Origin: an uncultured Gammaproteobacteria bacterium
GTDB taxonomy: Bacteria; Patescibacteriota; Microgenomatia; UBA10105; UBA927
DNA: 64,000 nucleotides
Assembly (NCBI GenBank): GCA_964629685.1
Contig: CAZVTT010000003.1
Coordinates: 86,038-150,037, forward strand
Direction of reading: 5' to 3'
The notes under the pieces: model-generated
What the model was told of the DNA's origin: nothing
Seen by the model: the letters and a program-made list of their open reading frames with translations, nothing else
Databases searched by the model: none
Part shown: positions 23,701-56,700 of the stretch, piece by piece
Layout of the letters: each line of letters opens with the position of its first letter
Position numbering within the stretch: position 1 is the stretch's first letter
Made by a program: the position numbers and the translations under genes

Positions 23701-26700
23701 ACGATATGCATACCCCTGTAACATAGTCCTGACCGATTCCATCATGCCGTCTCGGGTTATAAATTCTGCCAATTCCGCATTAGACGTAACACCATACGTA
23801 TGCAAAGTACGATAGATCACATAGTTAAGGTGCTCACAACCCGTTGAAGCACAAACGCGTAATAATTCTTCGTCGGAAAGATAATTGGTAATTTCCAGCA
23901 TCTGCGGTACTATATCTCCGCCTTTTTGCGCTTCCTGACCAAGCGTATCTATTACCTCTTGCAGTTCATTTGCCGTTAATTGTTCTGTACGACCTGCCCG
24001 TTGCTCCAGTTTAGTTTTCAGCTCAGATACACTCGCGGCAGGATGCAATTGTACGTCGGGATCCATGGGTAACAGTGCTAAGGTGTCATACGCGCGTGAT
24101 TGTGGATTAAAAGGTTCATCTTTAGCTGATTTAACGAAGTTATTGGCAAAGAATGTATATATTTCTTGCTCAATTACCGCTCTATTTGCCTGCTGCATGG
24201 TTTGCGCGTAGCCTTTAGTAAGTTGATCCACTGCAGCATCATATGAAGTCTGATTTATTCCCGCAGTATTCCGGTAAAATGCCAGTACGGAACCTGCCCG
24301 ATTCGCTGCTGTTTCAGACTCTGGGAACAACTGACCGAATACACTATCACGAAGCGCTGTATAGTAATCCCAATATTCCTGAGAAACGATTGTACTTACA
24401 ATATTCTCGGCTTCATCCCAGGAAACATTCCCCTGTTGTACTTCCAGGGCTACCATTAATAGCGTCGCCATTCCTTCGTTTCCTAAATCCCTAAGGTATG
24501 GACCATAAGCCCGTAACAAATCGTGAGAGGCTTCATGTGCCAGTATCCGGCGTAATAGCCTGGAGCGTTCCTCAGCAGTAAGTTCCGCATCAGCCCCGAA
24601 TATACTGGCGCGAACAACATAAACACCGGTGGCTTCATCATAGAATGCTGGGACTGCCTGACCCGGAAACTTTGTATCTATATACTGGTCATCAGCGACG
24701 ATTATCGGATAATGGGTGGGATTTATTTCTGACTGGGGTAAACGGATTTGTGCAATTGCGAGGGTATCCACTAAATTCTTCATCGAACCGACCAGCTCGC
24801 CCCGTTTGTGCAGCACTTGTAATGCGAACCATTTGTTTATGGCTTCCTGACTGGCATTGGTGAGTACACCGTTTTCGAGTGTGAGCGGATATTGTGTCGG
24901 ATTATCAAGATGCATGAGGTAATACCCTTTTACTAATCCGTAATTCTGATAGAACGGATCGGAATGGAACTGTTGCAGTACTTCTTCCCTGCCACTCTCA
25001 CCAGTTATTCTGGCTGTTTCCTGTAACTGATCAACCACAGCAGGTGCCCATTCCGGTACCACATGCGCCACGGCATCCATAGCGGTATCGGCAAATACGA
25101 CCACCGGTGCCCGCTGCACCGTATTACTAATCTGCTCACGTAAACTCAACGGACGGGATGAGCCGGGAGGATTGTTATCCGTTTGAGAATCTTCCTCACT
25201 TGGTGGTCGAACCGGATTACTCCTATTTCTTCTCCGCTCTTCTATAACTTGGGCACGTTGAATTTGTTTCGCTAATATCGCTTTTAAGCGTTCACTGAAT
25301 TCAAGTAATTCATCTTTACCGGTAAACGGAACCCGGAAACTGCGAGAACCACCCTCAACACTCGTAGTAACTTCTACACCTGCATCACGGAGTAAATTAA
25401 CCAAGAACGTTGTATCTGTTGATCCGCCGACGGATTGCGGCAACGGTCCTGTTGTAATCCATGTCATTACTTCATCCACATCCGAAAGCATCCCTTTTAA
25501 CGCGAGGATGACATTGCCAATATCAGCTTTTTCATCAGTAATACCATACACATTATTAAATCCGAAATGTAACTGGATTACTGAACCGTTTGGCGTAACA
25601 GCTCTAATGGCTGTAACCCCATTCTGAGCCACAAATCGTGATTCTGTATTCGTAGGCCTTTGCTGCCGTAATTGAAGCATAAAATCCTGACTCTCTTTGC
25701 TCACTTCTTCAACAGCCGCTGCTACTTCATACCAGACCCCACTAATCCGTGACCTGATTTCACCTACGGCAGCAGTAAGCTCATATTGCAGTTGTTCCCG
25801 TTGTATTTGAACTATATCAAACGGTGTTTCATCACCAACCGGAAGTTTTTCTACCAACTGTTGCATGAAGTACAGAGCTTCAACAAGTTGCTGCACTTCC
25901 GTTTCACTTACTTCTGCAGGAAGTGGAAATTCATCAAAATTATTCGCTACTTCAATTGCGGTTTGAATTGATCCAAGTGCTGATTCAATAAACGATGGTT
26001 TCGGTTCAATAATGGCCCTTGCTGTATTTACCTGAGCTATTAATGCTTTTTGAATCCGTTGGTTTGGCATCTGATGCTGATAGGCAACAGCGGCGGCTTT
26101 GGCTATCGCTTTTTTCGCTGATGCTAAATCTGGAGCACTTAACGCTTCATCTATAGCCGCGTTCACCTCTTTCACCGCTTTGCCACAGTCTGTGCAGGTT
26201 TGCCCGGCACTCGCTACCGTTATCGTACCAACTTGTGTAACATCCAATACATCCGTAACCACCGTGTCAGTTTTCTCTACGGATAATGCAGGAGATTGGA
26301 GTAATTGTCGTAAGACGGCTATATCAATTTCCCTTGGAGCATCGTCAGAAATGGTTGCTATCAATTGCTCGACTGCAATCTCTGCAACAGTATCTGAAGT
26401 GTCTGTTTGTACCGTAGCGGAAACCGGCTGAGTTTCACCTGTCGGTGTAAGGTATCCGGGATCGTTGGCAGTCGGCTGATGATACGTAATCGATGGACCA
26501 GACAATCTGCGGACTTCAGGGTCATTTCCGAGCAGAATTACATCGCCGTCATGCAATACTGTCGGCACCGTTATCCTGACACCATTTACCCAGGTGCCGA
26601 AACTCGAACCGGCATCCTCAATTGTTACCGTCGCACCGGTTATGGTTACCCGTGCATGTTGGGCACTACTGACCAAACCGGTACCGCTATTTTTACCGAT

Positions 26701-29700
26701 CAGCAGGTCATAATCCGCTTGTGACAGGATATTTTCACCCTCGCGCTGTCGCTGCAGCCGAATTGTCGTTTTTCCGTCCAGGCCCACTGCGTTTTCAGGT
26801 AATTCGACGGCTACCGGTATTGCTGCAGCACTCTCCGGGACCGGTACCGTTGCCGGAAGCAGCGGTAAAGACGGAGCCAGTCGGATACCCAAATTCTCGA
26901 GTACAAAACTCCCGAAGAGTGTCCGTAGACCCAATACGGTGCGGCGCGCTGCGGCAATAAAGTATGCGGTCGGATATGGCCGCGCGGCATCTTCACGGGC
27001 AACTGCTGCGCGGAGTGATTCCATATCAGCAATAAACACCCGGGAATCCGTCGCTTGGGCACCCACCGGTGCCGGCATATCCTGCAGCGCTGTTGCCGTT
27101 TGAATAGCCTTATCAATCGCAGCCAACATGCTGTCTTTATTTAACGTATCTTTGGTAATGGCAAACCGCACAACTTCAATTTGCGCTTGAACCGCCGTCC
27201 GCATCCGCGCATCCGCCCAGGTGTGGGTGGTAAATTGCAGTTCAGCATTCGTGAACGCAGCTACCGCCTCTGTTCTGTTTCCGGCAGCCAACTGATCTAA
27301 CGCCGTATCCAGCTGCCCCATAAGAGAAGGTACTTCCAGTTTACAAACCGAACATCCCGTTTCTCCCGCTAGTCTTCCCGCACGGTATGCCACCCGTTCA
27401 AAAAATGACTGCAGATAACGGATAAAGGAAACGCTACTGTTCCGGATAATCAATTGACGCTGAATTTCAGTTATACCATTTCCGATACTGTTCAACCCAT
27501 ATACGCTTAATCTGGGAAGTACCAAAACGACGTCAAATACATAATCTACCGCTGTCTTCGTTTGTTGATACACACCCTGCGCCATATTATCCGTGGCGAT
27601 TCCGCGGAAGGAATTCCACCGGGATGTAATACCGCCGAATAATCTGCGACTGATACCACCATCCGGAGCCTGAAGTTGTGCAGGGCTGAACACCCCACCC
27701 TGTGCTGCCAATGCCCCTGCCAGTAAACCGGCTTCGTTTACGGATTGTCTGGCGACCAGTTTGGCACCGTCTTCCCCAATAAGCCTGCGGGCTCTATCCG
27801 CAAGGGATTCCCTGCCGGTTATACGCAGCCAGGCACGCTGTACCACGTTCAGGTTGTCGGCATCCGCACCGATGTCCACATTGAAGACAAATTCACCGGT
27901 ATTTTTATCAAATACCACTGCTATTGTTACTTTCCTCGTATTCACCGTGTCAGCATGCGCACCACCAAAAACGACATCGTTTTCCTGAGGCAACAGCGAG
28001 AACATTACATCGGCATTATCTATCATTCTGGATTCGCCAACGTTAAATCCGTTCTTAGCCAGGAAGCGAATGGCCCAGCGCCATCCGCTTTGCGTCATAG
28101 ACTGAATCCGGAAATGGAAGCCTTCACCCTGACGCGCAGCCACCCGTTCACCGAGGGTAAATTGCCAGGCCCGCATAATCTGATCGGTAGACGTATTTCT
28201 TCCCATTAAGCCAAGAGATATTGCTAGATTATCGCCGTCATCGTAAACAGCTTCCAGGAAGTGGTAGAAGTCTACTCCCATAATCCGGGCTATCGCCCGC
28301 ACTATTAGTGTTTCTATCGTCAACCGACTTGCTTCAAATCGTAAATCTGCCAGCACCGCAATTTGTTCGTCACTCAGTTGCCCGATCTTTTCCGCAGACT
28401 CCAGGAATTCTGCTGTTACCGTTCCGCCGAATATGCGTAATAATTCCGGACTCTGATTAATCCGTACTGCCACATATTGCTTCCGCAATGCATCGACACG
28501 CGGTTTGAGTACGCCGTAAATTCCCGTACCGTCCAACGAGTCTACGCCCAACTCATTCACCAGTTGCGCGCGTACGACCGGATTTTGTGCCAGTCGTTCC
28601 AGATTCAGGCTGGTAGTAAAGTTTTTGATTTTTTGCTGCTGTGCTTCTTCCACGGTAACGGGATTATTCCGTTGATTCACGAACGGCGCAGCTTCCGTAT
28701 GAGCACGGATCGCTCCGGTAAGACTTCTGATAAATGGTGTGTATATTTTCGCGAGTGCCTTAGCTCCGTTTATGGTGGCGTGAGACCAGCCGGTAGATAT
28801 TTGTACCCCCAATAGTTGATCCGGAGCGTTCGTGTCAGCTTGAGTTCCGTAGAGTGTTTCGTCTTTCCCAAGTATGAAAGCAGCTTCCACATGATAACGG
28901 GCAATATTACCCCAGGTGGAAAGTCGTGGACCTTTCGCTTCAGAAAGCCTGGTTGTCCGGGTGCTAAATATTCCATCCAATACACTCAGCCGTTCTGTTA
29001 ATACCCGTGTTTGCGCATCTGTCCGTCGCGGATCATTGGCTGCCAAATCCGGATACACATCATCAACAGTTATCGGAGTTCCTACCAGACGACCGGAATT
29101 ACCTAATTGGCTTAATCGCTCAACTGTTGCTACATCGAGTGGAATTCCGTCATTTACCGCTCCCGTATTTGCTATTAACTGGCTGTACGCATATTTGTAT
29201 ATTAACGATTGCAGCCATTGCTCATCTATTGTCCCGTCGGACAGTACTATTGCATCGTTTAAACGGATGGAATACAACCGGGCAGAACCATCAGGATTCA
29301 TTATTACAAAGTCATAAATGTCTTTCTGATTATAGTCTTCCAGTATCATCCGCTTACCTTCCGGGTCTTTAGGATCAACGGTTCTTGCGGCGGTATATGT
29401 CGTAACCAACTGTTTGGTAATTACCTGGGATAATTGCTCCACCATGAATTCCGCTTTTTGGGTTTCCGAGGCACCTGCCGTCCTGCCTATTTCTACTTCC
29501 GTTCCATCCTGTCGTTCCCAACTCCGGAGAATATTCCGGACAGTCGGACTTACACGGGATAATTCCGCCAAAAGCTGGTTAATATTTTCCGGAGAGGTTT
29601 CGGTTACTGCTGCCTGAATCTGTGCAAACGTATTTGCCGCTGTCTGAAATACCGGAAGCAGTTGTGTTCCTTCTCTGGCGGCTACACCCCGTAAATTTTG

Positions 29701-32700
29701 CGGTACGATTGCCTGCAGTTGATTAAATAAATTGCGCAATTCCGGATTACTCTTATGCAGACGCTCCATAACTTCCAAGGCTTTATCGGGGTTTCTGCTT
29801 AAATAATCCAGGAGGAGTGATGTCACCCGTGCGGGATCCTTTTGAATAGTGGTGCGGTAATCATATTTTAACCACGTTATGTTCATATATGTTGCGGCAT
29901 CCGTCTGCAATATACGGTTAAGTACCCGGCCTACATTCTGTTTTATCCGATTAGCCCCGTCTACCAATATCGTTATCGGATTACCGACTTCCCTGGCCCA
30001 GGTTCCGCTTGCTGCTACTTGCCTGTATGACGCGACCCCTGCTTCTGCTCCGGCTTCCCGGGTAAGTCCGGCAGCTGACTGTGCCAGGAATATAGGCGTC
30101 AACGTCCCGTTGGAAATCCAGGACATAAGATTACGGATTGTTGAAGACGGCATCAGACTGCGGGCTTCATTGGTACGGGCGATGGTCTGATCAAGCTGTA
30201 ACAATACGCCGGTATTATGATCAATCAGTAATACTTTTTGCACCAAATTGAGCGGCACCCGGACAGGCGAAGTCAGCAATGATACGACAGTGGAAACTGC
30301 CTGGAACCATGCTCTCGGGGTGTATACTTTCGCCTGATCTTTGTCCGCAACCTTCCAATTTAGGCGGCCGTTTTCCATATACACCTTAATTCTGGTCGTA
30401 CCGATAGTAACCGTTGCCGGTCTGTTTACCACCACGAATTCCTGCGGCAGAACCGTTTCCGTTACGGTATTGGCGTCTATAGTATCGGCATCCACGTACG
30501 TCAGGGTAATTACGTTCGGACTGGTCGCACGGTTCGCGTCAGCCGGAACATTCCTGCCCGCAGGTGCCACATTAGAAAGTACGAAACTGGAATTGTCCAC
30601 CCGGGTTATCAGTGCATGGGAATCAGCCACACCTTCACCGGCCCGCACCCGTATACCGGCACTCCCGTTCGTACCGATTAACGTACCGGTATCGCGGGTT
30701 AAAGCACTCCGGATTGCGGCAAATACCCGCCCTACTCTCCCGCGTTCTGCCGTGATTTCTGCCGTGTCGGCAATAGGACTACTTACCCCATCCGTAGCCG
30801 GAGTAATACTACCGGGTCGTCGTAACAACGTCGGACGATCATCTTCATTATTCTGCAGGGCAATCCGGCGTGACAGTACTTGGCTCAGTATTTCATCATG
30901 CTTACCCGGTATAGTTAATATCGTTTGTAATGCAGTCTGATATATATCTGCTGCTTCATCCTTATGTGCAGGATCAATCCGCAGCAACAAAACTGCCTGC
31001 AGTTTACGATTCATGGCATCCGTTTCCCCTTCGCGAACGAGAGTTATGACTTCGTTCATCCGGGTCTGTAACTCTCCGGGAAGTACCGTCCGCGCCTGTA
31101 CCCGTTCCTTCTGTTGCCGGAAAGCCGTTTGCAGTCGGGTTACCAAACGCACCTGTAGTGTGGTGGCGACGCCCTTTTGCGCAGCTAACTGCTCAAGCAA
31201 CCTGTCTATTTCCCGCAACACGACATCGTATTGCTCCAATACCGTATCTATCTGGTCAGGTCGATCGTATGTAATCGTGACTTTATCCAAATCCCGAATC
31301 GTGTTTTCAAAATACCCATCAAAATCATAGAAGGTATACGTCTGATTTAATCGACCCTGCAATGTCCGCAGTAACGTAAGATATTGATCGGCAGTTACTT
31401 TCGCCTGCTGTGTGGGTAAAATATCGGAAGCCCGTTCTTCTTCCGATTTAGCTTCATATCGCGCGTCATCTATATCCTGTCGTAACGCTATGAGCACTAA
31501 TTCATAATTGGCTATTCCGTACTCCGTGCGGAGGGTATCCAGCAGTCTGGCCACCGCACCTGTCGGTCGGTTTAACGCGTCAGAGCTCGCTGCCGCAGTA
31601 ACCGGAGTTATCTTCAGTTCATTTGAGAGTTGGTTGTATAACCGTAATACCCCACGCTGATCGGCCGCGTTTGTTAACAAATCCGTAGCTGACTGAATAA
31701 TAAACGACCCGCTGCGCTGATCAATAAACCGGCTAAATACTCTTCCGAGTACTTCTCTGCGGAAATCAAACCAGGTATTTCTGGCCACTACCGCCAAACG
31801 CTGCTGTGTTGTAGCGGGTGTAACCAGCGTCGAATTATTCAGAATTGACTGCAATTCCTGCAGTTGCTGCGAAAGACGGATACGCTCACCTTCCAGCCGT
31901 TGCCGTTCTGCTTCCTGCGCCCGTTCGTCACCTTCCAGTACGCCAAGGATCGCGGAATCCAATAACTTTAACGCCGACTGATGTTTGGCAATAGCATCAG
32001 ATACATCCGCAGTATTTGGCGTTACCCGTGCCTGCTCTCCCTGGACTCTCGCCAATAAATCCATCTGAAACCATGCCTGTCGACTGCTGAATGCATGACC
32101 GTTTAACAATCGGCGCATTTGGGTAACCCACCGCTGCACGAATGGAGCTTGCGCCTGTGAATACAGTCCTTGCGCCCCCCGAATTTTGGTGAAGGCTTCT
32201 ATGGCATCGGTAATCCGGCGGTTCAATACGGAACATCGGGAACATTCCGTATCGTTTATTTGTGCCTGCGGTTGTCCGGCTCTACCGTTAACCGGTTGCA
32301 CCACAGCTTCCGCTTGTCCTTCTCCGATAAACATCACGGTAAAACTTATGTCATCACGGAATCTGCTGTTTGCCGGCAATTCCCCGCGTTTAATCTGATC
32401 CTGGTGGCGTGCACGTACTGCTGCGATAAGTTGGGCTTCCGCAATCTGAGGTGTCCGGGCGTTCGTCAAAATTCTGGCCAGAATCCGTTGTCCCAGCGCG
32501 GGATCCTGGCGGAAGTATTTCAAAAATCCATCCGATGTCAAGAGTACTCTGTCTCCCGATTTGGCTTTGTATGCCGATACTTTCCCGCCATAAAAACTAC
32601 TGCTGCCCAGATAATTCGGGTTTACCGGTGAAGCTGCCTGGTATTGCGGATCACGGGCATAAAACGCCAGCGGATTAAGTACGACGGGATCTATTTCTTT

Positions 32701-35700
32701 AAATGGTGTAGTTCCGCGCAGACGTTGGATCAGCCTACTAACTACGTTTGAGGCAGGCTGGACTGCGTACATTTCGGGATCACCGACCCGCGCTACCAGC
32801 AGACTTCCATCCGGCATTACGGTGGTACCGATTATGGTCGTAAACACCTGTTTATCCGGATCACTCCTTCTTCTTTCCGCTACAAACTGTACCATGGCAG
32901 CCTGCAGACGCACATCTATGGCGTTCTGCAAATAGGCTTGAGCTTCCTGTACGGTTGCCATGTTTCTGGCAAATTCCAGCTCGCGCAGTAAAAATTCTGC
33001 CGCAAATTGCGCACCGTCACGCAGACCGTTTTCGTTCGAACCGGACACGCCGTCTGCAACCACCATACTTTGTCCCTGCGTCAGCGCCACATCCTGTCCG
33101 AGCGGGGAGAATTTTGTATGCCCCGCTATAATCTGACCGTTTCCGACATTTCCACGGATAACCTTTTCTGTTTGCACCGGAGTTTCCGTCTGCGATACCC
33201 TGCTTATGGGAAGTATTCCCGTGTATTCTTTCGTATCCGCGGCGGAAATTTTCCCGTTGGCTATCGCATACAACGGTTTTCTGGTTCCCCGCTCCAATAA
33301 CCAGGCATTTCCACTCGTGGTACTTCCGGCGGTAAATACGTAATACGCATCACCTATTTGTATAGCATCACCATCCTGAAGATATGTCCGACCTCTGCCC
33401 TTTATATTTACGTCATTTACGAGTGTTCCGTTTGTCGAATTTGTATCTTCCAGATAGTATCCTTCACTATCAAAACCCAGCCTGGCGTGATCGCGGGATA
33501 CATTGGTATTGTTTATAACAATCCGCTCTCCGGTTCCGGCATTCCTGCCAAACGTAATGGCCCATGATCGATCAGCTGGTTGTTGCGGAACCACCCGGGC
33601 AACAGCTCCCTGAGCAGATATGCTATATTCCTGACTCCCGTTGGATTGTGTCAGTAGTACCTGTCCGTCTTCGTCATGGGAGAAAATAAGTATCGCGTCA
33701 TCACCAAACGAAATACTGTCACCGTCATGCAATACCCGTAACTGTCCGACTGCTAACGGATATCCGTTCACTGTAGTACGATTTGTCGCTCCGTCATCAA
33801 TAATACCGACACTGCCGTCAGCAGACTGAATTAACCGGGCATGAAGTCGTGATACGGTTGCACCCGGAACGGCAATATCCACCGTATTCCCGTCCTGCAA
33901 TCTCCCGATAGTACGTTCCCAGGTGGGACCTGCTTGTACCGGTGCCGCAATTTCTCCCAAGCTCAGTCCGGTAATAACTCTGCCGTTTACATCAAAAAGC
34001 TGCTGGATTCCTTCAGTATCCCGGCCGACAACCAATGTCACTTCACCCAACTGTACCTGATCACCTTCAGTAAGATTTTGCTGTGTTACTTTTGTACCGT
34101 TGATCAGCACGCCATTTAATGCACCGGAATCGCGTATGGCAATAACGTTTCCGGATGCATCACGGGAAATGTACGCATGTAATCGGGATACGGAGGCTCC
34201 GGCAATATTACCGTTCTGTTCACCCCGTCCGATTCCTTCCGTGGTCAATTCCTGTCCGAGAGCCACACGTGTACCGCTAAACACCGGTGCAGTCACCGGA
34301 ACCGGTGCACGGGATTGTGCTGTGCGTAGATCGAATATGGTCGTTGCATCATCAGCGATACTGCGCGAACGGGATACCACCGGTTGTTCCGTCCGTTGAT
34401 CCGCCGGCAATTCCGCCAGTGTATCTACCGCAATATCCGTTCTGGCTGTGCCGTACACTAATCCGATACTGGTAGTGGTGGCAATCACCCGGTAGCCGAC
34501 CGTTCCGACCATCAATTCATCACCAACCTGCAGCTCAACCGGAGTATTCCGTGGCGTGCGGTACGGCGTTCCGTTCCTGATAATGACACTACTTACGGGA
34601 TGACTGTCAGTAATAACTAAGCGATCATCATTACGTGACAATACCGTCTGCTCCTTTTCATTCGGACTGGCCTGCAGAACCAGAATTTCATTTTCACTCA
34701 ACGTGATTACGGATCTGTCTATTGTCGTCCGTTGAGCTAAAAAGCCGTTAAATGTATCTGGCGCGTCGTACACGTTCTGATCCAGACGGTTGTAAACCAA
34801 CCGTTGCTGTGAACTATCCAACTGATCAAACGGTATAAAATCTGCATCAACGGTATCAAACCCTTCATACAGCAATGCGGATGTCCGGTTGTTTCCGTCT
34901 ATGACCACAAATCTGCCGCTGTCGCGTTCATACGTTATCGTCACCGGTACGTCGGTTCTATAGGTATCATCACCATAAATTCCTGCCCGCGCCCGGAAGA
35001 ATGCATCTGCCCGCACGCCATCTTCGAGTGGGGTTAATTCCGAAATCGTGAAGCGATACCGTCCGGCAGTAAGAGTCTGAGCATTTGCACTGGTAACGGA
35101 ATTTACCTGCCGCGTCTGCGTTGAATTTACGGGTGATACCGCCGGATTACCCATTACAATTTGCAGCAATCCGTTTACATCGGTGGTCACATATACCACC
35201 GTTTGGTCAGATAATGCGTTTACTTCTCCGGCAATTGTGCCGAAGAATACCTGATCTCCTGATTGCAACGCGACAGGTGAACCATTGGTTACGGCAAGAA
35301 TTGTTCCGTCTGCCCGCCGGATAGATGTGCCGTACGAAGAACCTTTCCCGGAATTGCCCAGGTCGCGGACAAATATGGTATTACCCTCTCTGGTAAATGC
35401 TGCATGACGGCTGGATACCTTTGATCCGTAGACCGGTATATCGCCGCGTATTGCCGTCCGGTGATCCACCCGTCCTGCCACTACTTCTCCGCCGAGCCTA
35501 CCCTGACTCCCTGAAGGAATATAGATTCCGCGGGCCTGCTGACCGTTCTGTGTTTGTACCGGAATAAATGCGCCGGGAGTAGTATCTGCAATATAGCCCA
35601 CGACTCCTTCCTGGGTGTCGGCTGTCACATCTGTCGGCGCCAATAATTCGGTTGGTGCAGCGGCTATAACAGGTAATGGACTTGTCGGGCCATCCGCTTC

Positions 35701-44700: not shown

Positions 44701-47700
44701 CGGTGCAATTTCAGCACGCGGAATGGCAGTGGCAACGATCTGCACCTGCCCGTTCCCGACTGTCCCGACGACCTGATTGTTATTCACCAATCTGTCACCG
44801 GTCTCAAATACAAAATTCGCTTCAACCGGTATCCGTTGTACGGTCCCGTTCACCGTTCGTTCTACCACTAAATTCGGCGGAACCGTTTGTCCTGCCTGGG
44901 TTTGCAGTTGTAACGTTCCATTGGTGTTTACCACGGCTATTTCCTGTCCCTGGCCAACCGGGACTCTGGTCGGTAAACTCGCTCCTTGTGGCACCGGTTG
45001 CGCGACGTTAGCTGGAGGCCCGGAGACTTGAACTCGTGTATTCCCAGGAGCATATGCCGTTGCAGTGTTAACGACACCTGTTTCTCCGGTAGCTAATCGG
45101 GTGGGCGCAGCGAGTATGGCTTCATTACCGGAACGGGTTACGTAATCACTTGGTCTGAGTTCGTATGATTGACCACGTTCCATCACAATGGTCGTTCTGG
45201 TACCGTTTTCTGTTTGGGTCACCAGTCTAACTTCACCGGTTGTTCCTTCGGCTACCCGAACCCTGGCTACTTCGCCTTCCCGATATACTTCCAGAACCTG
45301 CTGATTCCTGCCCTCTCCGTATGTTAATGTCGTCGGCCGTTCTGCAGTTCCCGCTATTTCCAACGCGGTAGATCTGTCTACCCGACTACTTTGTGTACGG
45401 TATAACTGTATACCGAGTCCGATAGGATCTGACACCAACTGTCCGCCACGTGCCAGTAATGCGGTAACACCACCTTGTTCGTAAAACTGTGTCGTAGCGC
45501 GGCCTTCTGCACGGCCGAGCGCAGTATCGGGTCGAAGGAAATGGGTAAACGGACTTGCAAGCTGTAACGCTAATGCACTGCCGAGTGTATGGCCTATCCT
45601 GTCGGCATAACAGGTCGATTCCTGTTCCTGATCATCTATAATGCCTTCACCGGATAAATCACGGCAACCGGAGTTGCCCACTATCGTTTCCATGACACCC
45701 TTCCCGACAGCAGCACCGAGCGGCAGAACAATGTGTTCACCGATGGTCTTAAATTCCACATACCCGATAATGGAGCTTTGAAGTGCCTGAGTCGCACCCA
45801 ACCGTGCACCCGCACGACCGACTACTCCTTCGGATAATAACCCCGCAGATCCGAGTGAAATGCCCCGCGCGAGAGATTGAATTGGTGCCAAGCCGAAGTA
45901 TATGTCTCCGGCGGCACTCATACCGTATTCCATCGTGGTAGCTATTACGTTCCCAATATCATTTTGACCTGAAAATATTTCAGACCTCGCGAGAATGTCA
46001 CAACCCCGTGAACCGCCTACAAAACAGACAAAATCTATAGCAGTAGACACATTGCTTTCCGTAAGTGGACCTGCGGTATTGCCGCCGGTAATCCATCCGG
46101 CAATATTCTGTCCGGTAATAAAGTCTAAACTGGAACGGCTGGCATCACCTGCCAATGCGCCCAACATTTCTATCCGGTATCCAAGGTCAAGCGCATCTCC
46201 GACGATAGGCACCCATCCGTACGTCGTTTGTACCAACGCACCGACGGTTCCACCCAACGCCTGGAATGTATGGTCAATCGCAGTGGAAATCTGCAGATTC
46301 CCTAAGTCGCTGCCGACTGCAGAGATGTTCGTATACGCCCGTTCAATCCGACCTACCTGTTGCGCCGTTCCGTCCAATCCTAATAATGCAAAATTGCTGG
46401 CAAGAAAAACACGCTGGGCAATATTCCCGCCGTGATCGCCGGTTAACGCCAAATTCGCACCCATGGACCGCTCATACAGATCCCGAGCCCCATCCTCTCC
46501 TCCTAACGCATACGCAAACCCTACCAGAGGAGCTGCAATTAAATTATCCAATCCGCCATCGTCCGCCATACTGAATGCCATATTGGCTGCCACAAAATTC
46601 CGGTTAAAATTCTGGGCGCCTTCGATTCCCATAATGTCGATGTAGGCACCGGCCATAAACCCGGCCAGACCGCCTTCATCGCGCGCCGCATCAGCGGCCT
46701 GACTCCGTAACTCACGCTCCCGTGCAGCGATATCAATATTTATTTCATACTGTGCCAGAGACCGTTCCCCGCGTACGAATTCCATGCCGTATAAATCATC
46801 CGCCTGAGCCTGAACAACCAATTTTTGCTGATCGAGTGACCAGGATGTACCGGTGTTGATCATGGCTGCCACCATTTCCCGGTCACCGAACATGTGCATA
46901 TAGCCTTCGGGATCACTCAAATAGTCTTCCCACACGCCACCATTGTCGAACGCACCGATAGTTCCGTCACCCGTACACTGATATCCCGCTGTATTCAACA
47001 TTTCCTGATAGTTCGGACAAATGGCACCATCGCAACTGTAATCACAGGCAATAGCCCCTAGTCGCTCGCGCGTGGCAGGATCGTCATGTAACGCCTGCAT
47101 AAACGCCTGACTTTGCGTCAAACGCACCTGCATAGTATTTACGGACATATCTGCCGAATACATCCCCTGATAACTGACCCAATTGCAGGTCGTTCCGTGA
47201 CAGACATATACTTCCATTACCTGTTCCGGGGAATCACTTAATCCGTTATCGATATTACCGGGATCAAAAATATACATACTGGTTGTTCTGACTCCACCGT
47301 CAGACCAGTGGAATCCGACACTGCCGCCTGTCAGTAATGCACCCTGTTCCTGAGCTGTTAGCGTCCTGGGGACAAACTCCGCCAGTTCTTCAAAACTGGA
47401 AACCGTCACTACCCGACCGCGGGGATTTTGCGGAGAAAACACCGTACATTGCATTTCTGCATTCGTCTGTGTTTGAGTCGACGTATTGCAGGTGACATAA
47501 CTATTGCCGTTTTCTACCCAATCGTCAGCAAACTCGCCGGAAAACGTTTCCTGATATTGTCTGGTTAACGGATCTAACTGTGTTTTAATGCTATACGCAA
47601 CCTGTTGGCACTCGGCAGCAAATCCGGTTGTTCCGGACTGCGTACACATTTCCGAACCGGCAAGCACCGTATTCACCCGCGTGTCTATTTCCTGCTGACG

Positions 47701-50700
47701 TAATTCCAGACAAGCGGTATCGTCAATTTCGCATTGTCTTGCACTCTGATACACATCAATGATGCCGGATTGCAACGTCATGAACTGATTAAAGCGTTCC
47801 ACTTCCTGCCCCGCGTTAGCAGCCAACTCTTGCCTGCTCTCACACGTAACGTCAGTCCTGACACAATTCTGACCGGTGGTAATTAAGCTATTTAACGTAG
47901 TTTCCGCGGTGGCAAGTCGTGCTTCTGCCGCAGCGCACGCACCTTCTGCGTTACGGTCACAGGACAGCACTCCCAAACGGGCTTCCTGATATTCCGTCAG
48001 CGCTCCGCTCACATCTCCGGAATATTCATATAAACTGGATAGCGTTGTAATTTGACGCAGCGTCTGATTCTCCATACGGGTAGCTTCTGCATGACACTCT
48101 TCAACATTCGCTGCCCGCTGACAGACGTTTGCTTCCGTCAGGTTGAGTGTATCTCGCGCCAACTCGAGACATCGCTGTAATTCGGTATCGTTCTGGCTGT
48201 TTCTGGCCATACAGCCTTGAGCACTTTGGTAATTTGACTGATTGGCGACCGTCAGTTCAAATCCGGCTACAATATTCAGACACCTATTTGTTGTGCCCTG
48301 ATTCGCAGCACATTCACCCTGCGCGGAAAATTGCTGTAGGTTGTTGGAATAGGCGTTCTGACAGATGGATAAAGTCGCGTCACTGTTGGCGTTCTGTACG
48401 CAATTTGTATACTGCTCACGGTACTCAATAAGTTGGTCCTGTTGTCTGGCCACAAACGCATACTGCTGTAATGACGTACCCACCTGTAACCCCGTGCGCG
48501 CGACCGTCAAACGGCAGGTTTCTTCATCACTGGATTCATCACATAATCTGGCTTGTTGGGCGGAAATCTGACTTCGGGCTGTTTCAATACAGGCATCCTG
48601 TGCTTCTTTTGTAGACTGACGGTCAATACAGTTTTGCGCCATGCGGGTATATGAATCCGTCCGTGAACTTAAGTCATAACTCACTAACACATCCGCGCAG
48701 CGTTGCGGTGATCTTTCGCATTCGGTAGTCGATTCCAGTCTCCCCACCACACAGGCACGTCTGCTTTCTTCATCTTGAGCTTTTATGGCACAGCGTTCGT
48801 ACTCTTCACTGTTATAAATATCCCGGATCTGTTCCTGTGTCCTGAGTGCGAATGCGTATTGGTTCAAAGACGTGGTTGTTTGGCTGATCAGCTGACCGGC
48901 GTTCTGTTCACAGGTTTTCTGATCACCGGCTTGCGCACAATAATCCGAAATATAATCTGCCATCACCGTCCGTACTGCCGCGACACATCTGGCGTTTCGG
49001 GACTGCGCCGTTGCGTCTCCGAATGAATTCGTGTCTCCCGAACCAGAAGTATTTTCTATACAGGATTCCGAACCGGCAATACTTCCCTGTAATGCGAGGT
49101 TTATCTGATACCCTGCTACCACGTCGCGACACGCATTGGTATTTTTTGTATTTGCTTTACACTCTTCATTTGTCGTTGCATAATTTCGGATTGCGCTGTC
49201 ACGTTGCTGTAAACAGATTTCGTCAGGGGTGCTCCCGGCAGCACAGGTTTCATATGCATCCGCAATCAGATCAAGCCGGGACTGTTGGCGGGTAGAAAAT
49301 GCATATTCATTCAGTGAAGTATTTACCTGTTGCCACGATCTGCGGGCTTGCTGCTCACAGGCAGCCACGTCTGCAGCGGTGGCACATAAATCTTTTACTT
49401 CTTTGTCGTTTAATCCCTGCGTTACCGAAATACACCGTGCCTGTGTTTCCGCTGCCGTCGCTCCGTTATCTGCCGCTGAAGCCACACAGCTTTGTCCGGC
49501 AGTTGCCCACCGTTCCAGTGCCGCATTCACCTGGTAGTTTGCGGCCAGATCCTGACACTTCCGGGTGCTGCCGGCATTCTCCGCACATTCTCCCTGACTG
49601 GCAAAATTGGTAAACGAACTCCTCCGCGCGTTCTCACATACCACTAACGGTTGTCCGGTTTCCACACAAGCGTCGTAATCATCTGAAATTTCGGTTAATG
49701 CAGTTTGCTGTCTAATAACAAACGAATATTCGGTAAGTTGAGTCTGTGTTTGGCGGATTGTTCTGTTGGCATCATTTGTACACGATTCAACATCTGCCGC
49801 GTTTGCACAATACCGGCTAACCCGCTCACTCATTACCGTTTGTACTGCATCGACACACCGCTTTTGCTGTACTGCGTCTGCACCAGCCCGTTCGATACAT
49901 GATTGGGAGCCAGCCGTACTGCCGCGTAAACTGGTACTAACCTGATAACTTGCCAAAATATTCTGACACGCCGCAGTATTCCCGGAATTCGCTGCACATT
50001 CACCACTTGATACCAATGTTCTCCACTCCGCATCACGCTGCCCCTCACAGACACTACCGGGAATACCCTGGTTTACGCACTCGTTCACATCATCACCAAT
50101 TTCACTAATTCTTGCCTGAGTCCGAACATTAAATGCGTAGGTAGTTAACTGGCGCTGAGTTTGTCTTACGGAGGATTCCGCTTCAGAACGGCAGGCTTGC
50201 TGATCAGCTGCATTCCGGCATATTTCTGCTATGCGGGCATTCATGACTGTTTCGACCGCATCCACACAGCGCTCTTGTTGGCCGGCATCGGATTCCGCCC
50301 GTTCAATACAGGATTGGGATCCGGTGGAACTTCCCCGTAAAGATGCATTGATCTGATAACTCGCCAGAATATTCTGACACGTTGCAGTTCTTCCGGCATT
50401 TTCCGCACATTCGCCGGTGGAAACAACGCTCCGCCAGGACGCGTTACGTTGACTTTCGCAAATACTTGTTGGTATTCCCTGGCTTACACAGGTATTCAGT
50501 TGTGTATTTATTTCATCTATGCGTTCTTGCGTCCGGACATTAAACGCATATGATGTGAGTTGTGACTGTGTTCGTGATACCGCAAGAGCAGCTTCCTGAC
50601 GACAATTCTGCTCATCTGCTGCGTTACGACAATAATCGTCAATCCGCTCATCCATTACCGTTCGTACCGCATCGACACAGCGCTCTTGTTGCGCAGCATC

Positions 50701-53700
50701 TGTTCCCGCCCGTTCTATACAGGATTGGGATCCGGCAGTACTTCCGCGGAGACTTGTCGTAATCTGATAATTTACCAATAGACTCTGACAGGTGTTTCTA
50801 TTTTGCGCTTGTGCACATTCTCCACCGGATACCAACCTATTCCATGCCGTATCCCGTTGACTTTCACAAACGCTTCCGGGAATACCCTGATTTACGCAGG
50901 TATTAACCTGCTCACCTATTTCGTTGATTTGCGTCTGAATTCGGACATTAAATGCATAGTCAGTTAATCGTGATTGAGACTGAATTACGGATGTTGTTCC
51001 TTGCCTCCGACAGGCAGCAACGTCTGCTGCGTTAGCACAGAATTGAGTTATTCTGTCATTCATCACTGTCTGCACCGCAGCCACACAGCGCTCTTGTTGC
51101 GCAGCATCATCTCCGGCCCGTTCGATACATGCTTGTGAGCCGGCCGTACTGGCCCGCAGACTCGTATTTACCTGATAACCCGCTAATATGTTCCGACAGG
51201 TTGCATTATTGTCTTCCTCCGCACATTCTCCGGAATTTACTAAGCTTCTCCATGCTGCATTTCGCTCACTTTCACAAATACTTCCCGGTATCCCCTGATT
51301 TATGCAGGTATTCACGCGTTCGCCAATTTCTGCTATCTGAGTTTGTGTCCTGACGGTGAACGCGTATTCGTTTAACTGAGACTGAGTGCGGATAACGGAT
51401 ATATTTGCCTGAGAACGACAATTATTCTGATCTGCAGCATTCCGGCAAATCTCTGCGATCCGCTCGTCCATTACGGTATCCACCGCCGCTATACATCGCT
51501 CTTGTTGGGCTGCATCAGAACCAGCCCGTTCAATACAGGATTGGGATCCCGCCGTACTCCCCCGCAGACTCGTACTAACCTGGTAACTTGCCAGTATGTT
51601 TTGACACGTGGCGGTATTTCCTGAAGTTGCTGCGCATTCTCCGCTCGATACCAACGTCCTCCAGGCAGCGTCCCTTTGACTCTCACATATACTCCCGGGA
51701 ATTCCTTGTCGCACACATTCGTTAAGTTCATCTCCTATTTCCGTTATTTGCGTTTGCGTACGAACGTTAAATGCGTATTGATTCAATTGCGTTTGCGTAC
51801 GGGTTACGGAAATATTGGATTGTGATATACAGGCTGTTTGATCTGCAGCGTTCCGACAAATTTCATCAATCCGATCATTCATAACGGTCTCAACGGCGTC
51901 TATACACCGCTGCTGCTGAGCCACATCCGTTCCAGCCCGCTCTATACAAGATTGCGATCCTGCTGTGCTTCCCCTCAAACTCGTACTTACCTGATAACTT
52001 GCCAATAAATTTCGGCAGGCAGCAGTATTGTCTGAATTGGCAGCACATTCGCCGGTAGAAACAAGCGTACGCCAGGCGGCATCGCGTTGACTTTCACAAA
52101 TACTTCCGGGAATTCCCTGTCGCACACATTCATTTACATCCTGGCCGATTTGATCGATTTGTGTCTGAGTCCTGACGTTAAATGCGTACTCCTCAAGTTG
52201 TGTCTGTGTCTGATTCACTGATCGGGTTGCCTGTGATCTACACGTGGATTGATCTGCAGCATTTCGGCAGATATCTGCAATTCGGTCGTTCATCACAGTC
52301 TCTACCGCGTCAACACACCGCTGTTGCTGTACTGCATCAGCTCCTGCCCGCTCGATACAGGACTGTGAACCTGCCGTACTGCCACGAAGACTGGTATTTA
52401 CCTGATAATTTGCCAAAACATTTTGGCAGGTATCGGCATTTCGCACTTCCGCGCATTCACCTGTAGTTAGTAGCGTTCTCCAGGCGGTGTCACGTATACC
52501 TTCACAGACACTGCCCGGAATACCCTGATTTACACACGTATTTACCTGTTCACCTATTTCGCTGATCTGTGTTTGGGTCCGTACGGTAAATGCATATGAA
52601 TTAAGCTGCGTTTGTGTTTGAGATACTGCGGCAAGGCCCTGAGACCGACAACCGCTCTGATCTGCCGCGTTACGGCAAATATCGTCGATCCTATCGCTCA
52701 TAACCGTGCGGACTGCATCCACGCAGCGCTCTTGCTGCGCAACGTCGTCACCGGCTCTTTCAATACAGGATTGGGAGCCAGCCGTACTGCCGCGTAAGCT
52801 GGTGCTAACCTGATAGTTTGCTAAAACATTTTGGCAGGTAGCGGTATTCCCTGAATTCGCAGCACATTCACCGCTGGTTATCAGCGTGCGCCAGGCGGCA
52901 TCGCGCTGACTTTCACAAATACTGCCCGGAATTCCCTGATTTACACAGGTGTTTATCTGCTCGCCTATGTCGGCTATTTGTGTCTGCGTTCTCACGGTGA
53001 AGGCATATTGATTGAGCTGTGTCTGTGCTCTGGTAACGGATAAATTCGCCTGAGATCGGCACTCATCCTGATCTGCTGCATTCCGGCAAATATCTGCAAT
53101 CCGCTCATCCATTACGGTATCCACCGCCGCTACACATCGCTCTTGCTGAGCCACATCAGCTCCCGCACGTTCTATACACGATTGGGACCCTGCCGTACTG
53201 CCGCGTAAACTGGTATTTACCTGATAATTCGCCAATAGATTCTGGCAGTTAGCGGTGTTGGCGGAATTTGCAGCACATTCTCCGGAAGTTACAATATTTC
53301 TCCAGGATTGATCCCGTTGGCTCTCGCATATACTCCCGGGTATTCCCTGACCGATACAGGTATTCATTTGTTCACTCGCCTGTTCAATTTGCGTTTGCGT
53401 CCTGACGGAAAACGCATATGCTGTTAAATCATTCTGCGTTTGCGTTAAGGAACGGTTTGCCTGCGTCCGACATGCTGTCTGATCTGCCGCGTTACGGCAA
53501 ACTTCTGAAACCCGCTCATTCATGACGGTTTCAACCGCTGCCACACACCGCTCCTGTTGAGCGACATCAGTTCCGGCCCGTTCTATGCATGATTGGGATC
53601 CAGCAGTACTTCCGCGCAGACTGGCGCTAACCTGATACCCTGCTAATATATTTTGGCAAGTTGCTGTGTTCCCTGAATTTGCAGCGCATTCGCCGGTGGT

Positions 53701-56700
53701 AATAAGCGTCCTCCATGACTGGTCTCGTTGACCTTCACAAACACTTCCGGGTATTCCCTGATTCACACAGGTATTCAGCTGCGCACCTATCTCGGCTATT
53801 TGTGTTTGAGTACGGACGGAAAACGCATACGAATTCAATTGAGACTGGGTTTGCCGTACGGCTGTTAAACCCTGAGACCGACAGGCATTCTGATCTCCTG
53901 CATTCCGACAAAGATCATCAACTCGTGAGTTCATAACAGTACTTACCGCCGCCACACAGCGCTCCTGCTGGGCGACATCGGAGCCTGCACGTTCTATACA
54001 GCCTTGTGAAGCCTGAGCACTCGCCTGAAGTGTCTGGTTTACCCGATATCCGGATAAAATAGAGCGGCATGTCTCACTATTGTCCCCGGCACACTCACCG
54101 GTAGTAACCGCAGTATTCCAAGCAGAATTTCTTTGGCTCTCACAGATACTGCCGGGAATACCTTGACTTATGCAGTCATTGATATCTTCACCTATCGCAG
54201 CTATTTGTGCTTGCGTTCTTACACTAAACGCATATTGATCCAAATTGGCGGATACTTGCGTCTGCGTTCTCTGTGCCTGAAGTCTGCAGGTGCTTTGATT
54301 ACCTGCAGCAGCACAGACATTTTCAACCTGTGATGTAAAGGCGTTATTTACAAGCGAAATACACCGTTCCTGTTCGGCGGCATTGTCGGGATTTCGATCT
54401 ATACACCGTTGTGCGGATTCCGCACCGTTATTTGCTGCAACGTTCACCTGAAAAGAAGCGGCAATATCCCGACAATTTGTCTGGTTTGCGGCACATTCGC
54501 CCTGGGTAGCAAATGTCGAGAGTGCCGTATCATAGCGATTCTGACAATTGGAGACGGTACTGTCGCTACGGGCATTTTGGATACACGTAGTATATTCCGA
54601 TCGATAATCTTCCAGTACATCCTGCTGCCGTACCACAAACGCCACGGACGTAAGTCTTTGCTGTTCCTGCGTTACGGCTTGGCTAGAGTTGGCCCGGCAG
54701 GCAGCAGGATCTGAAGCACTTGCACAGAGTGTATTTATATTTGTCGTCATTACAGTCCGTACAGCATTTACACAACGCTGTTGTGCCTGAGCCATAGTGG
54801 TTTCACCTAACGTCGCATCCGGCTCGACCCGCTCTAAGCAGGACTGTGCTCCCGAACTGCTCCCCTGCAACGTTAATCCAACCTGATAATTTACCAATAC
54901 ATCGCGACAACTGGCGGAATTCGCACCAGCACATTCTCCCGTCGTTACCGCTCTGTTCCAGGCAGTACTTCTTTGGCTTTCACAAACACTTCCCGGTATT
55001 CCCTGATTTACGCATGTCGTTAGCTGAGCATTTATCGTCTCGAGCTGTGTTTGGGTTCTGACGTTAAATGCATATGAATTTAATTGGGTTGTAGTTTGGG
55101 TAACGTTTTGCGTCGCTTGAGCCCGACAGCCTGCCTGATCTGCAGTATTCCGGCATAGATCTTCTATTCTGGTATTCATAACCGTACTCACGGCAGTTAC
55201 ACACAGCTGTTGTTGTTGGGTATCTGAACCGGCACGTTCTATACATCCTTGCGAAGCCTGGGCACTTGCCTGCAATGTCTGTCCGACACGATAACTCGCC
55301 AATACATCCTGACAGGTGGCGGTATTTTCACCGGCACAGTCACCGGTTGTAACCAATCTATTCCACTCAGTGTTTCGCTGGCTTTCACAAATACTGCTCG
55401 GTATTCCCTGTCGTATACATTCATTCAATCGGTCGCCGACGGCCACGATATTTGCCTGCGTGGTATACGCGAGTACCTGGGTATCAACGGTAGATGTAAT
55501 TCTCTCTACTGCCGCGATTCTCCCCTGGCAGGTGGCATCCGTAGGCGGACATGTATCTGGACGCTGTTGATTTAACTGTCCCTCCAGTCTGGTTATTTCT
55601 GCTCGTGTGGCGCTACAGCGGGCAGCCTGATCAGAAGTGGTTACCTGTCCGGCGGCACATTCCGTTTCCAACCGTACCCGACTGGTTACCAAGTTTTCCG
55701 CCAGTTGAGCGTTCTGTTGCTGCACAGCCACTGCCGATTGCTGTACGTCTACGTAAAACAATGCATTTTCGGCTTGAGACCTGACGATATTACAGGCTAT
55801 ACCTGTTAAACCGCCGCAATTTTGTGCTATAAGTCGAAGCTGATTTTCGTTTGCCGTTTGAGACCGGTTACACTCTATTGTGGTGCTCCCTTCCGGACAA
55901 ACCAATCCCTGTAAGGCAGTATTTGTTCGTTGGTCTACCAGCGCCAGCGAACGACGGACCTGATCCCGTTGCGAATTCAGCGCCGTAAGTTCGGCTGACA
56001 CTGCCTCAGCCTGATTCTCACAGACCTGCAATGCCAATCCCGAAAGATTCCGACAGGAACCGAGTGTTCCGGTAGAAGCTGTCTGTAATGTGTTGTTGCA
56101 TGCCGCCAGCACATATTGATTTCCGTTTGCACCTTCACAGGCTATCGCGCGTACGGCCGAATTTACGGAGTTGTCTACCCTGTCCAAAGCTCCTCGCAAC
56201 TGTACACTTTGCTCCGCTAAATCCGCAGTACCGGCAATCGTATTTTGGGTAGCGTTATTTATCGGTGCACATCCTGCCGGCGTGTATTCACATTCTCTTC
56301 TGATTTCAGCGTTTAATGTATCCAGTCTTTGCTGAATCCTCCGTTGTTCAGCCTGGCACTGAGCAATGTTACCGCTCGTACATACTGCCGCATTTACGCT
56401 TTGCTGTGTTAAGTCCTGCAATTCTTCAGACCTTTGGGTCACATAAATATCGACCGAACGAACGGCACCTACGCGTTGATCGGCATATTCCCGTGGATCT
56501 AACTCGGTCGTCTTTCCGGTACCGTCACGTTTGGTTAATGCAGAGCAGGTTTGCCAGTGATAAATTTGTTGCATTTGCCTGCATAAATCTCCACCCGGTG
56601 CAAACTCCCCGATGGTACGGTTATTGGAAACATTAATACACGACTCTTCGTTTGTACGCGTATCTACGCCACAGATTAATGCCGTACCGTTTGGATTGTA

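Follow-up and report, generated by a model that had tools for sequence, protein, structure and literature searches.

This work concerns a 64,000 bp stretch of DNA from an uncultured, ultra-small bacterium of the Patescibacteria (contig CAZVTT010000003.1 of assembly GCA_964629685.1, positions 86,038–150,037; hereafter, the window). It carries a single giant gene and, inside that gene, a tandem array of 18 cysteine-rich units, each about 137 amino acids (aa) long. Among described systems, the array invites comparison with Ebh and Embp of staphylococci (1 MDa; PDB 2DGJ, 6GV5, 6GV8): envelope-associated proteins of more than 10,000 aa with tens of tandem helical repeats. In these proteins, bundles of ~125–170-aa repeats are joined by a common long helix, and the resulting rigid rod measures tens to hundreds of nanometres (PMC7587433). 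The FG-repeat of Embp has 125 aa and a length of about 7 nm, six such repeats have a maximum dimension (Dmax) of 34.8 nm, and the EbhA rod measures about 320 nm (PMC7587433). The helical repeats of Embp are both rod-forming and ligand-binding; the F and FG repeats bind fibronectin (PMC7587433).

Four other systems provide further points of comparison. The spectrin repeat, found in cytoplasmic, eukaryotic proteins and without disulfides, is a three-helix bundle of about 106 aa in which a continuous helix joins consecutive units. In the CHCH (twin-CX9C) domain, each of two helices contains one CX9C motif and is tied to the other by disulfides. Periscope proteins (SasG, Rib, Sgo_0707 SHIRT arrays) repeat a folded domain in tandem to form a rod, and the longer the array, the further the remaining protein projects (PMC8201768). 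Neighbouring SHIRT domains are 82–100% identical in protein, variation depends on this high DNA identity, and repeat number changes rapidly between strains (PMC8201768). Finally, a class of giant prokaryotic 'tandem-repeat scaffolds' is known from Omnitrophota, in which one domain is repeated within proteins of more than 10 thousand aa (kaa; bioRxiv 10.64898/2026.06.07.730766; West-Roberts et al. 10.1101/2023.11.21.568195). A 2026 preprint on this class reports that nucleotide tandems dissolve while protein repeats persist (bioRxiv 10.64898/2026.06.07.730766).

The array described here shares features with each of these systems, and fits only the descriptive scaffold class, including its dissolved nucleotide tandems. 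It is like Ebh/Embp in the size of the protein and in its tandem repeats, predicted here to be helical, and in that the repeats resemble one another in sequence only to a low or moderate degree, far from 100%. It is unlike them in the four conserved cysteine (Cys) pairs of its unit and in its Patescibacteria host; furthermore, no FIVAR or GA match was obtained in Pfam, and Ebh/Embp were not among the fold-search matches listed. The anchor of the present protein is N-terminal, whereas Embp combines an N-terminal export signal with a C-terminal membrane segment. We know of no Ebh/Embp repeats with such conserved cysteines. As in spectrin, a continuous helix joins the units, here by prediction; however, the present unit has 137 aa and about five helices, spectrin/plakin matches in Foldseek were insignificant (E ≥ 4.5, probability ≤ 0.08), and no Pfam Spectrin match was found. 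The proposed stapling of antiparallel helices by disulfides recalls the CHCH domain, and the C1–C2 and C3–C4 spacings in the core of the array equal CX9C. Unlike in CHCH, the Cys pairs here span turns, and their spacing varies with the intervening segment; no Pfam CHCH match was obtained. With 17,564 aa and 18 units, the protein falls under the descriptive definition of a tandem-repeat scaffold (at least 10 kaa, with one domain dominant by copy number). It differs from the published scaffolds, which use known Pfam repeats (TSP3, NHL, WD, HEAT, TPR), in that its unit is in no described family, and from those of Omnitrophota in its Patescibacteria host, its single transmembrane segment instead of many, and the lack of a detected SecA-like domain.

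None of the sequence or fold criteria tested places the unit in the spectrin, FIVAR/GA, CHCH or Periscope families. New are (i) a domain family without a described relative, (ii) its regular four-staple Cys architecture, and (iii) its occurrence in a 17.5-kaa protein of Patescibacteria. We think it reasonably likely that the array forms a continuous, disulfide-stapled helical rod, and that this rod serves a giant surface protein as the stalk nearest the membrane.

An array of 18 units with eight cysteines each

The giant gene is a single open reading frame (ORF) on the minus strand (window 5728–58422) that stays open for 52.7 kb and encodes 17,564 aa, counted from a mechanical GTG start. A hidden Markov model (HMM) of the unit places 18 contiguous, head-to-tail, in-frame units at aa 973–3452, corresponding to window 48067–55506 on the minus strand. 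A clean HMM built from the 18 units recovers exactly those 18, and none elsewhere in the giant protein. An earlier reading of the bare DNA sequence (hereafter, the original prediction) had proposed just such an in-frame array of 18 copies inside a giant gene; it correctly located the array, but its coordinates (47962–55422) were about 100 nt off at each end. A supposed Cys-less 19th copy at aa 6452–6575 was an artefact of a first HMM, seeded on every 'QGIP' site, and disappeared with the clean HMM. The array makes up 14% of the length of the giant protein and is its sole long internal repeat.

Units are 132–149 aa long. Most have 136–137 aa, and hence a repeat-finder returns a spacing of 408/411 nt. 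The ladder of ~411 nt that had been set beforehand as a test of the array is present: at lag 411, base autocorrelation reaches 0.425, compared with 0.263 ± 0.014 for in-frame background lags (about 11 standard deviations above), with harmonics near 820, 1230, 1640 and 2050. In a control stretch of the same gene, autocorrelation never rises above 0.284. The 12-mer ggattgggatcc, which had been proposed to recur every ~410 nt, has only three perfect matches, plus two that differ at one base.

Every unit contains exactly eight Cys (144 Cys in 18 units), and in the alignment these fall into seven invariant columns plus one with Cys in at least 90%; the original estimate of about eight conserved Cys per unit was thus accurate, and the motifs it quoted agree with the consensus. 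The spacing of the Cys residues was compared across 28 units from two species—the 18 of the window and 10 from L005, a relative described below—using sequence only, and hence independently of any structural model. Two intervals, C4–C5 (23) and C6–C7 (16), are the same in 28/28 units, and C8 is followed by C1 of the next unit at a distance of 38 or 40. Length otherwise varies only within the remaining five intervals: C1–C2 (10–18), C2–C3 (8–18), C3–C4 (7–11), C5–C6 (13–25) and C7–C8 (9–12).

Across the giant protein as a whole, 233 of 251 Cys precede about aa 4,250. Past aa 4300 (window 5728–45500) there are 18 Cys, all in nine close pairs whose members are 3–22 residues apart. Four of these distal pairs are CxxC motifs (aa 8727/8730, 10357/10360, 10743/10746 and 12317/12320), while the residues of the other five are 4–22 apart.

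The unit is predicted to be helical, with probable disulfide staples

A single unit was modelled with AlphaFold2 (AF2), using an alignment of the 18 paralogues. The resulting model is entirely helical (helices at residues 2–32, 37–53, 55–59, 61–94, 98–120 and 126–136), with a predicted local distance difference test score (pLDDT) of 93 and a predicted template modelling score (pTM) of 0.81. Fold searches with the unit returned no significant match. In a three-unit model (pLDDT 91.3, pTM 0.70), two 44-residue helices, H126–169 and H263–306, cross the unit boundaries. The last helix of each unit is thus predicted to merge with the helix that opens the following unit, giving a continuous rod in the manner of spectrin and Ebh, rather than the string of beads envisaged in the original prediction.

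The Cys spacing can be compared with the model. The invariant Cys intervals coincide with long modelled helices, and modelled turns lie inside four of the five variable intervals (C1–C2, C3–C4, C5–C6 and C7–C8). Specifically, Cys 30/40 sit around loop 33–36, Cys 57/67 around 54–60, Cys 90/104 around 95–97, and Cys 120/129 around 121–125. Fixed spacing along helices, with insertions and deletions only in the other Cys intervals, is the pattern expected of a disulfide staple at each turn. Taking spacing and model together, each unit most likely contains four disulfide staples, each closing one helix-turn-helix. The earlier suggestion that the Cys residues are disulfide partners in an elongated, extracytoplasmic structure gains support from the eight Cys per unit, from spacings which indicate that the pairs bracket turns, from the distribution of Cys along the giant protein, and from the membrane anchor described in the next section.

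The array follows a probable N-terminal membrane anchor

The features of the giant gene, and of the array within it, are as follows (window coordinates; all on the minus strand).

5728–58422, minus strand: giant ORF, from the ORF list and its translation; N-terminus conserved in the relatives L005, L009 and L013.
58183–58239, minus strand: hydrophobic segment, aa 62–80 (ILPLVLLLAFASVTVLLIS), Kyte–Doolittle hydropathy (KD) 2.67; read as an N-terminal signal anchor.
56503–58182, minus strand: Pro/Thr-rich (PT) linkers between small Cys-rich modules, aa 81–640, 9.3% Cys; conserved in L005 and L009.
55507–56502, minus strand: pre-array region, aa 641–972, with eight close Cys pairs in array-like style; 86% identical to L005.
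53854–55506, minus strand: array units W1–W4, aa 973–1523; W1, W2 and W3 have 1:1 orthologues in L005.
49756–53853, minus strand: array core, units W5–W14, aa 1524–2889, 'QGIPGS' subtype; one clade, without an L005 counterpart at the matching position.
48067–49755, minus strand: array units W15–W18, aa 2890–3452, diverged subtypes; the L005 orthologues of W15, W16 and W17 are X8, X4 and X5, in a different order.
47443–48066, minus strand: post-array stretch, aa 3453–3660, with five more close Cys pairs; no detectable homology to the unit.

The true start of the giant protein is likely to be Met44 (window 58293, 'MKSSTIH...'). The segment at aa 62–80 is the only strongly hydrophobic one in the protein; the next best in 17.5 kaa has a KD of 1.53, and where the Cys-rich part gives way to the Cys-free part, no candidate for a second transmembrane segment has a hydropathy above that value. 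In the homologous anchor of L013, the N-side carries a charge of +3 and the C-side a net charge of 0, which suggests an N-in/C-out orientation. The even, locally paired Cys and the PT linkers lead us to infer that at least the N-terminal quarter of the protein is extracytoplasmic, in oxidising surroundings. At the border between this Cys-rich quarter and the nearly Cys-free remainder lies a Gly/Ala-rich stretch (aa ~3900–4400, window ~45220–46720; 14.8% Gly) that is weakly hydrophobic, with a maximum of 1.45 and no transmembrane-like hydropathy.

Between the anchor and the array, a small Cys-rich module of the form C..C.GC...FCGD.G..AGQTCNQ.C occurs in about 4–5 copies with PT linkers between them (aa ~330–575, window 56700–57430). 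It has no family match, and is conserved in L005 and L009. The Cys-paired flanks of the array (aa 641–972 and 3453–3660) were considered as extra, degenerate units, which could not be demonstrated: their HMM scores are at the level of shuffled sequences, and there is no composition-corrected BLAST match between them and the unit. Distal to the array, detected domains include three FHA domains at aa ~8060–8360 and another at aa ~10585–10632 (4–5 FHA in total), a weak PP2C-like stretch (~8450–8555), a histidine kinase (HK)-type HATPase_c domain (~12020–12112) and an AvrB/XopAH-like stretch (~13990–14082); together these occupy window ~16170–34250.

Lysine is avoided in and around the array. The array contains 9 Lys and 189 Arg (0.4% Lys), and there are only 0–2 Lys per 500 residues over aa 501–3000 of the giant protein, with 3.4–4.7% Lys in the neighbouring genes. 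The orthologous array of L005 is also Lys-poor (12 Lys, 113 Arg).

Similarity between the copies lies at the protein level

The ten units of the core (W5–W14) share 62–73% DNA identity and 62–80% protein identity; when unit 4 is included, mean DNA identity is 66.5% (range 56–73%). Outside the core, protein identity to core units is about 46–64% for W1, W2 and W4, and 24–43% for W3 and W15–W18. Tandem Repeats Finder (TRF), applied to 40–64 kb of the window, reported no array, since divergence between the copies is too high. No two units have an exact DNA word longer than 29 nt in common, and for most pairs the longest is below 20 nt. The original prediction stated that fourteen central copies were 80–90% identical in DNA; ten core copies at the lower identity given above take their place.

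Nonsynonymous divergence (dN) between core units has a mean of about 0.22. Synonymous divergence (dS), calculated by the Nei–Gojobori method (NG86), is saturated: it is non-computable for 24/45 pairs, and the remaining values have a median of 2.3 and go no lower than 1.29. In columns where the amino acid is identical, the codon is also identical in 46% of core comparisons, versus 37% expected from the codon usage of the gene. Despite the saturated dS, 56 of 137 core columns are invariant and mean column identity is 80%. Synonymous sites have not been homogenised, and so neither recent duplication nor gene conversion is supported. Gene conversion would homogenise such sites; its mark is not seen, and the core similarity therefore reflects purifying selection acting on old duplicates, with similarity at the protein level only. 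By the same sequence measures, the array offers homologous recombination little to work with and is not liable to collapse in assembly. The earlier proposals of a recombination-prone array, and of concerted evolution in its core, do not survive these figures: the longest shared word is short, dS is nowhere below 1.29, and synonymous differences have not been erased.

Other contigs of this organism represent the same strain only, and their overlap with the array is limited to units 1–6. Within that overlap, contig L002, from another sequencing run (SRR14271333), shows 100% protein identity over aa 1–1829, which encompasses units 1–6 and the start of unit 7. Assemblies from three runs are identical in sequence wherever they overlap; L002 ends in unit 7, and L004 near unit 1.

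Relatives of the array were located by synteny

The unit profile gave no significant match in Pfam, NCBIfam, PDB sequences or 5.8 billion clustered proteins, nor in 1.84 billion protein representatives that were scanned in full with HMMER. However, the window's own 17,564-aa protein, and the contig-end fragments of its orthologues, are absent from both the 5.8-billion and the 1.84-billion collections, so that 'no homologue' results for giant genes in these collections are unreliable. The 5,270-aa relative in L013 (see below) does have precomputed Pfam matches on record. Strict pattern scans of JGI metagenomes, with core units and with the pre-array anchor, returned no match. Three weak candidates were set aside: (i) a 35-residue match in Bacillus, the sole return from a pattern scan of GTDB genomes, which was dismissed, (ii) CD38, the best hit in the PDB sequence search (E = 0.46), which was read as chance, and (iii) a Pfam 'ALP_N' match at aa 2890–2945, which contains no individually significant stretch and was taken as repeat-driven noise.

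Relatives were located instead through the flanking iPGM and LysM-M23 genes, the named homologues of which are from Candidatus Gottesmanbacteria and other Patescibacteria; this makes a CPR (Candidate Phyla Radiation) bacterium of the Microgenomates group the probable host. In L005 (SRR31730570), iPGM is 77% and LysM-M23 94% identical to the window's genes. Here the orthologous large gene is cut by the contig end; the 2,502 N-terminal aa that remain include the same anchor, the same Cys-rich modules and 10.4 units of the family. In L009 (iPGM 58% identical), the N-terminal architecture is alike up to the contig end. L013 (GCA_040960095.1, a 416-kb contig; LysM-M23 72% identical) contains a complete, FHA-containing relative of 5,270 aa. 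Its anchor and PT/Cys modules are alike and its body is homologous, with 24% identity to aa 4772–5482 of the giant protein; no 137-aa array was found in it, at least within the ~2,950 aa that the locus covers.

Several units of the window (W) have 1:1 orthologues among those of L005 (X): W1–X1 (72% identity), W2–X2 (69%), W3–X3 (73%), W15–X8 (60%), W17–X5 (48%) and W16–X4 (44%). For the W1–3/X1–3 pairs, dN is 0.17–0.23, versus 0.148 for the flanking iPGM gene; that the values are so close indicates strong constraint on the units. W5–W14 form one clade, the sister group of which comprises W4 and the W1/X1 pair. No counterpart of W5–W14 was found in the collinear position of L005, between X3 and X4. 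Instead, L005 has its own expansion of the W17 subtype (X6, X7, X9 and a partial X11), and the units common to both species occur in a different order. The L005 fragment finishes at the end of its contig, so its unit count is at least 11, and a core-type block may lie further downstream. From these comparisons, array content changes between lineages by differential expansion or loss, with no units found in L013, at least 11 in L005, and 18 in the window. On the same comparisons, the idea of a tuned array length survives only on a long, between-lineage timescale.

The neighbourhood of the large gene is itself partly conserved. A block encoding a LysM-M23 peptidase, iPGM and a protein with a CarboxypepD_reg domain (window 59693–63887) adjoins it, and is conserved in L005 and L009. 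In the more distant Gottesmanbacteria L012 and L013, the order is Rho-LysM-M23, followed by a large FHA protein. In L014, L016 and L017, the LysM-M23 gene is present with no large gene beside it. Between the LysM-M23 gene and the giant gene lie two tRNA-Ala genes (GGC and CGC; window 58902–58977 and 59270–59345, minus strand). In the Logan contigs, genes of 91 aa and 138 aa are called on the other strand, roughly over the tRNA-Ala genes; these calls may be spurious.

Discussion

The rod that we favour would be assembled as follows. Each unit, about 137 aa long, would be an all-α domain in which long helices pack antiparallel into a bundle and four Cys pairs flanking the helix-helix turns would lock each hairpin as disulfide staples. 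The last helix would run unbroken into the first helix of the next unit, such that 2,480 residues would form one semi-rigid rod. Placed after the N-terminal anchor and the Pro/Thr-linked, Cys-rich head, the rod would lie outside the cytoplasm of a Gottesmanbacteria-like cell of the Patescibacteria (CPR), and would act as a stalk or spacer that sets the reach of the remaining giant protein from the membrane. By analogy with the FG-repeats of Embp, at about 5.8 nm per 125-aa repeat, the 18 units may span roughly 100 nm. The copies stem from old tandem duplications, persist under purifying selection, and have by now diverged too far in DNA for ready recombination; related lineages have expanded different unit subtypes, and no array was found in the part of the more distant L013 relative that the locus covers.

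Several observations weigh against this proposal. The AF2 alignments were made up solely of paralogous units of this one protein, and the proposed disulfides and ~100 nm length come from a predicted model and from analogy. The conservation of the core, in the face of saturated dS, exceeds the obvious need of a passive spacer. Topology raises further points: the charges beside the anchor of the window's own protein are ambiguous, and among the distal 13,000 aa are domain types usually confined to the cytoplasm (FHA, PP2C-like, HK-type ATPase, AvrB/XopAH-like). With only one transmembrane segment, these domains would be exported too, which would be odd. L013 has a second hydrophobic segment (aa 1118–1136, KD 2.03), which follows its main Cys-rich region; if a weak second membrane segment of this kind were present in the window's protein, it would tether the rod at both ends.

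The same conservation brings us to the alternative that fares best, namely that each unit serves above all to bind a ligand, in a multivalent (adhesin) array the 18 copies of which provide avidity for a polymer on the surface of a host cell; the rod shape would then be of secondary importance. This is compatible with a stalk; as an explanation of the array we consider it possible, though unlikely. The invariant core columns suggest a constraint on surface residues, Embp sets a precedent for helical repeats that form a rod and bind a ligand too (PMC7587433), and those Patescibacteria that have been cultivated are obligate episymbionts. However, the unit matches no ligand-binding family or fold, and an adjustable spacer, more than an essential binding site, fits a distribution in which L005 is without the core subtype at the collinear position and no array was found in L013.

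Rather than staples, the Cys residues could be metal-binding or redox-active, making the array a metal store, an electron conduit or a redox buffer. We consider this improbable. In its favour are the 144 strictly conserved Cys in close pairs, the CX9C-like spacings that recall CHCH-type motifs, and the four isolated CxxC motifs further along the giant protein. Yet the spacing within pairs varies with segment length (10–18, 7–11, 13–25 and 9–12), which suits staples and not fixed chelation; the invariant columns include no conserved His or Asp partners, no metal-binding family was matched, and the context is extracytoplasmic.

The model of the original prediction was a stalk of the Periscope type, the length of which is tuned by frequent recombination of near-identical DNA repeats, with concerted evolution among them. 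A rod formed within a surface protein by one domain repeated in tandem is the Periscope architecture (PMC8201768), which the predicted rod would resemble, and array content does differ between related lineages. The mechanism is another matter, and we judge it very improbable here. Periscope variation needs the high DNA identity of neighbours that are 82–100% identical (PMC8201768), whereas the core units, with 62–73% DNA identity, fall short of it, escape TRF, are saturated at synonymous sites, and share no identical word longer than 29 nt. Unlike in Periscope proteins, length differences are seen only between species or lineages; same-strain contigs are identical over units 1–6, and assemblies from three runs agree where they overlap. 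Lastly, an assembly artefact, in which the number or order of units comes from a mis-assembled repeat, can be rejected: short reads from the other samples do give contigs that stop in unit 7 (L002) or close to unit 1 (L004), but copies that differ at about one base in three allow reads to be placed uniquely, the frame is open for 52.7 kb, L002 comes from a different run and is identical through units 1–6, and every unit is distinct, several having specific orthologues in another species.

Two lessons follow for the study of giant repetitive genes. Firstly, a repeat that is striking at the protein level may still be no hot spot of recombination, and the test is to measure dS between its copies. 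Secondly, 'no homologues in billions of proteins' can reflect a blind spot, because fragments of giant genes that are cut by contig ends go unindexed; here, the orthologue was found only through synteny.

For the organism, the finding touches on how Patescibacteria interact with other cells. Genomes of Patescibacteria are tiny, and all that have been cultivated live attached to other microbes; the means by which they hold on to their hosts are largely unknown. A single gene of 52.7 kb is a large investment for such a small-genome cell. On a more speculative and rather doubtful reading, the almost lysine-free, disulfide-locked nanorod would be a molecular ruler in a contact apparatus, holding the 13,000-residue distal body about 100 nm from the membrane of the episymbiont. 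If this were true, the distal effector-type body, with its FHA, PP2C-like, HK-ATPase and AvrB/XopAH-like domains, would reach, or be delivered into, the host cell, and the differences in rod length between lineages (0, at least 11 and 18 units) would correspond to differences between the envelopes of their hosts. Short of that, the analysis offers a first structural reading of the most conspicuous segment of the giant gene: a new domain family, found in one sub-lineage only, that is predicted to form a long, stapled rod.

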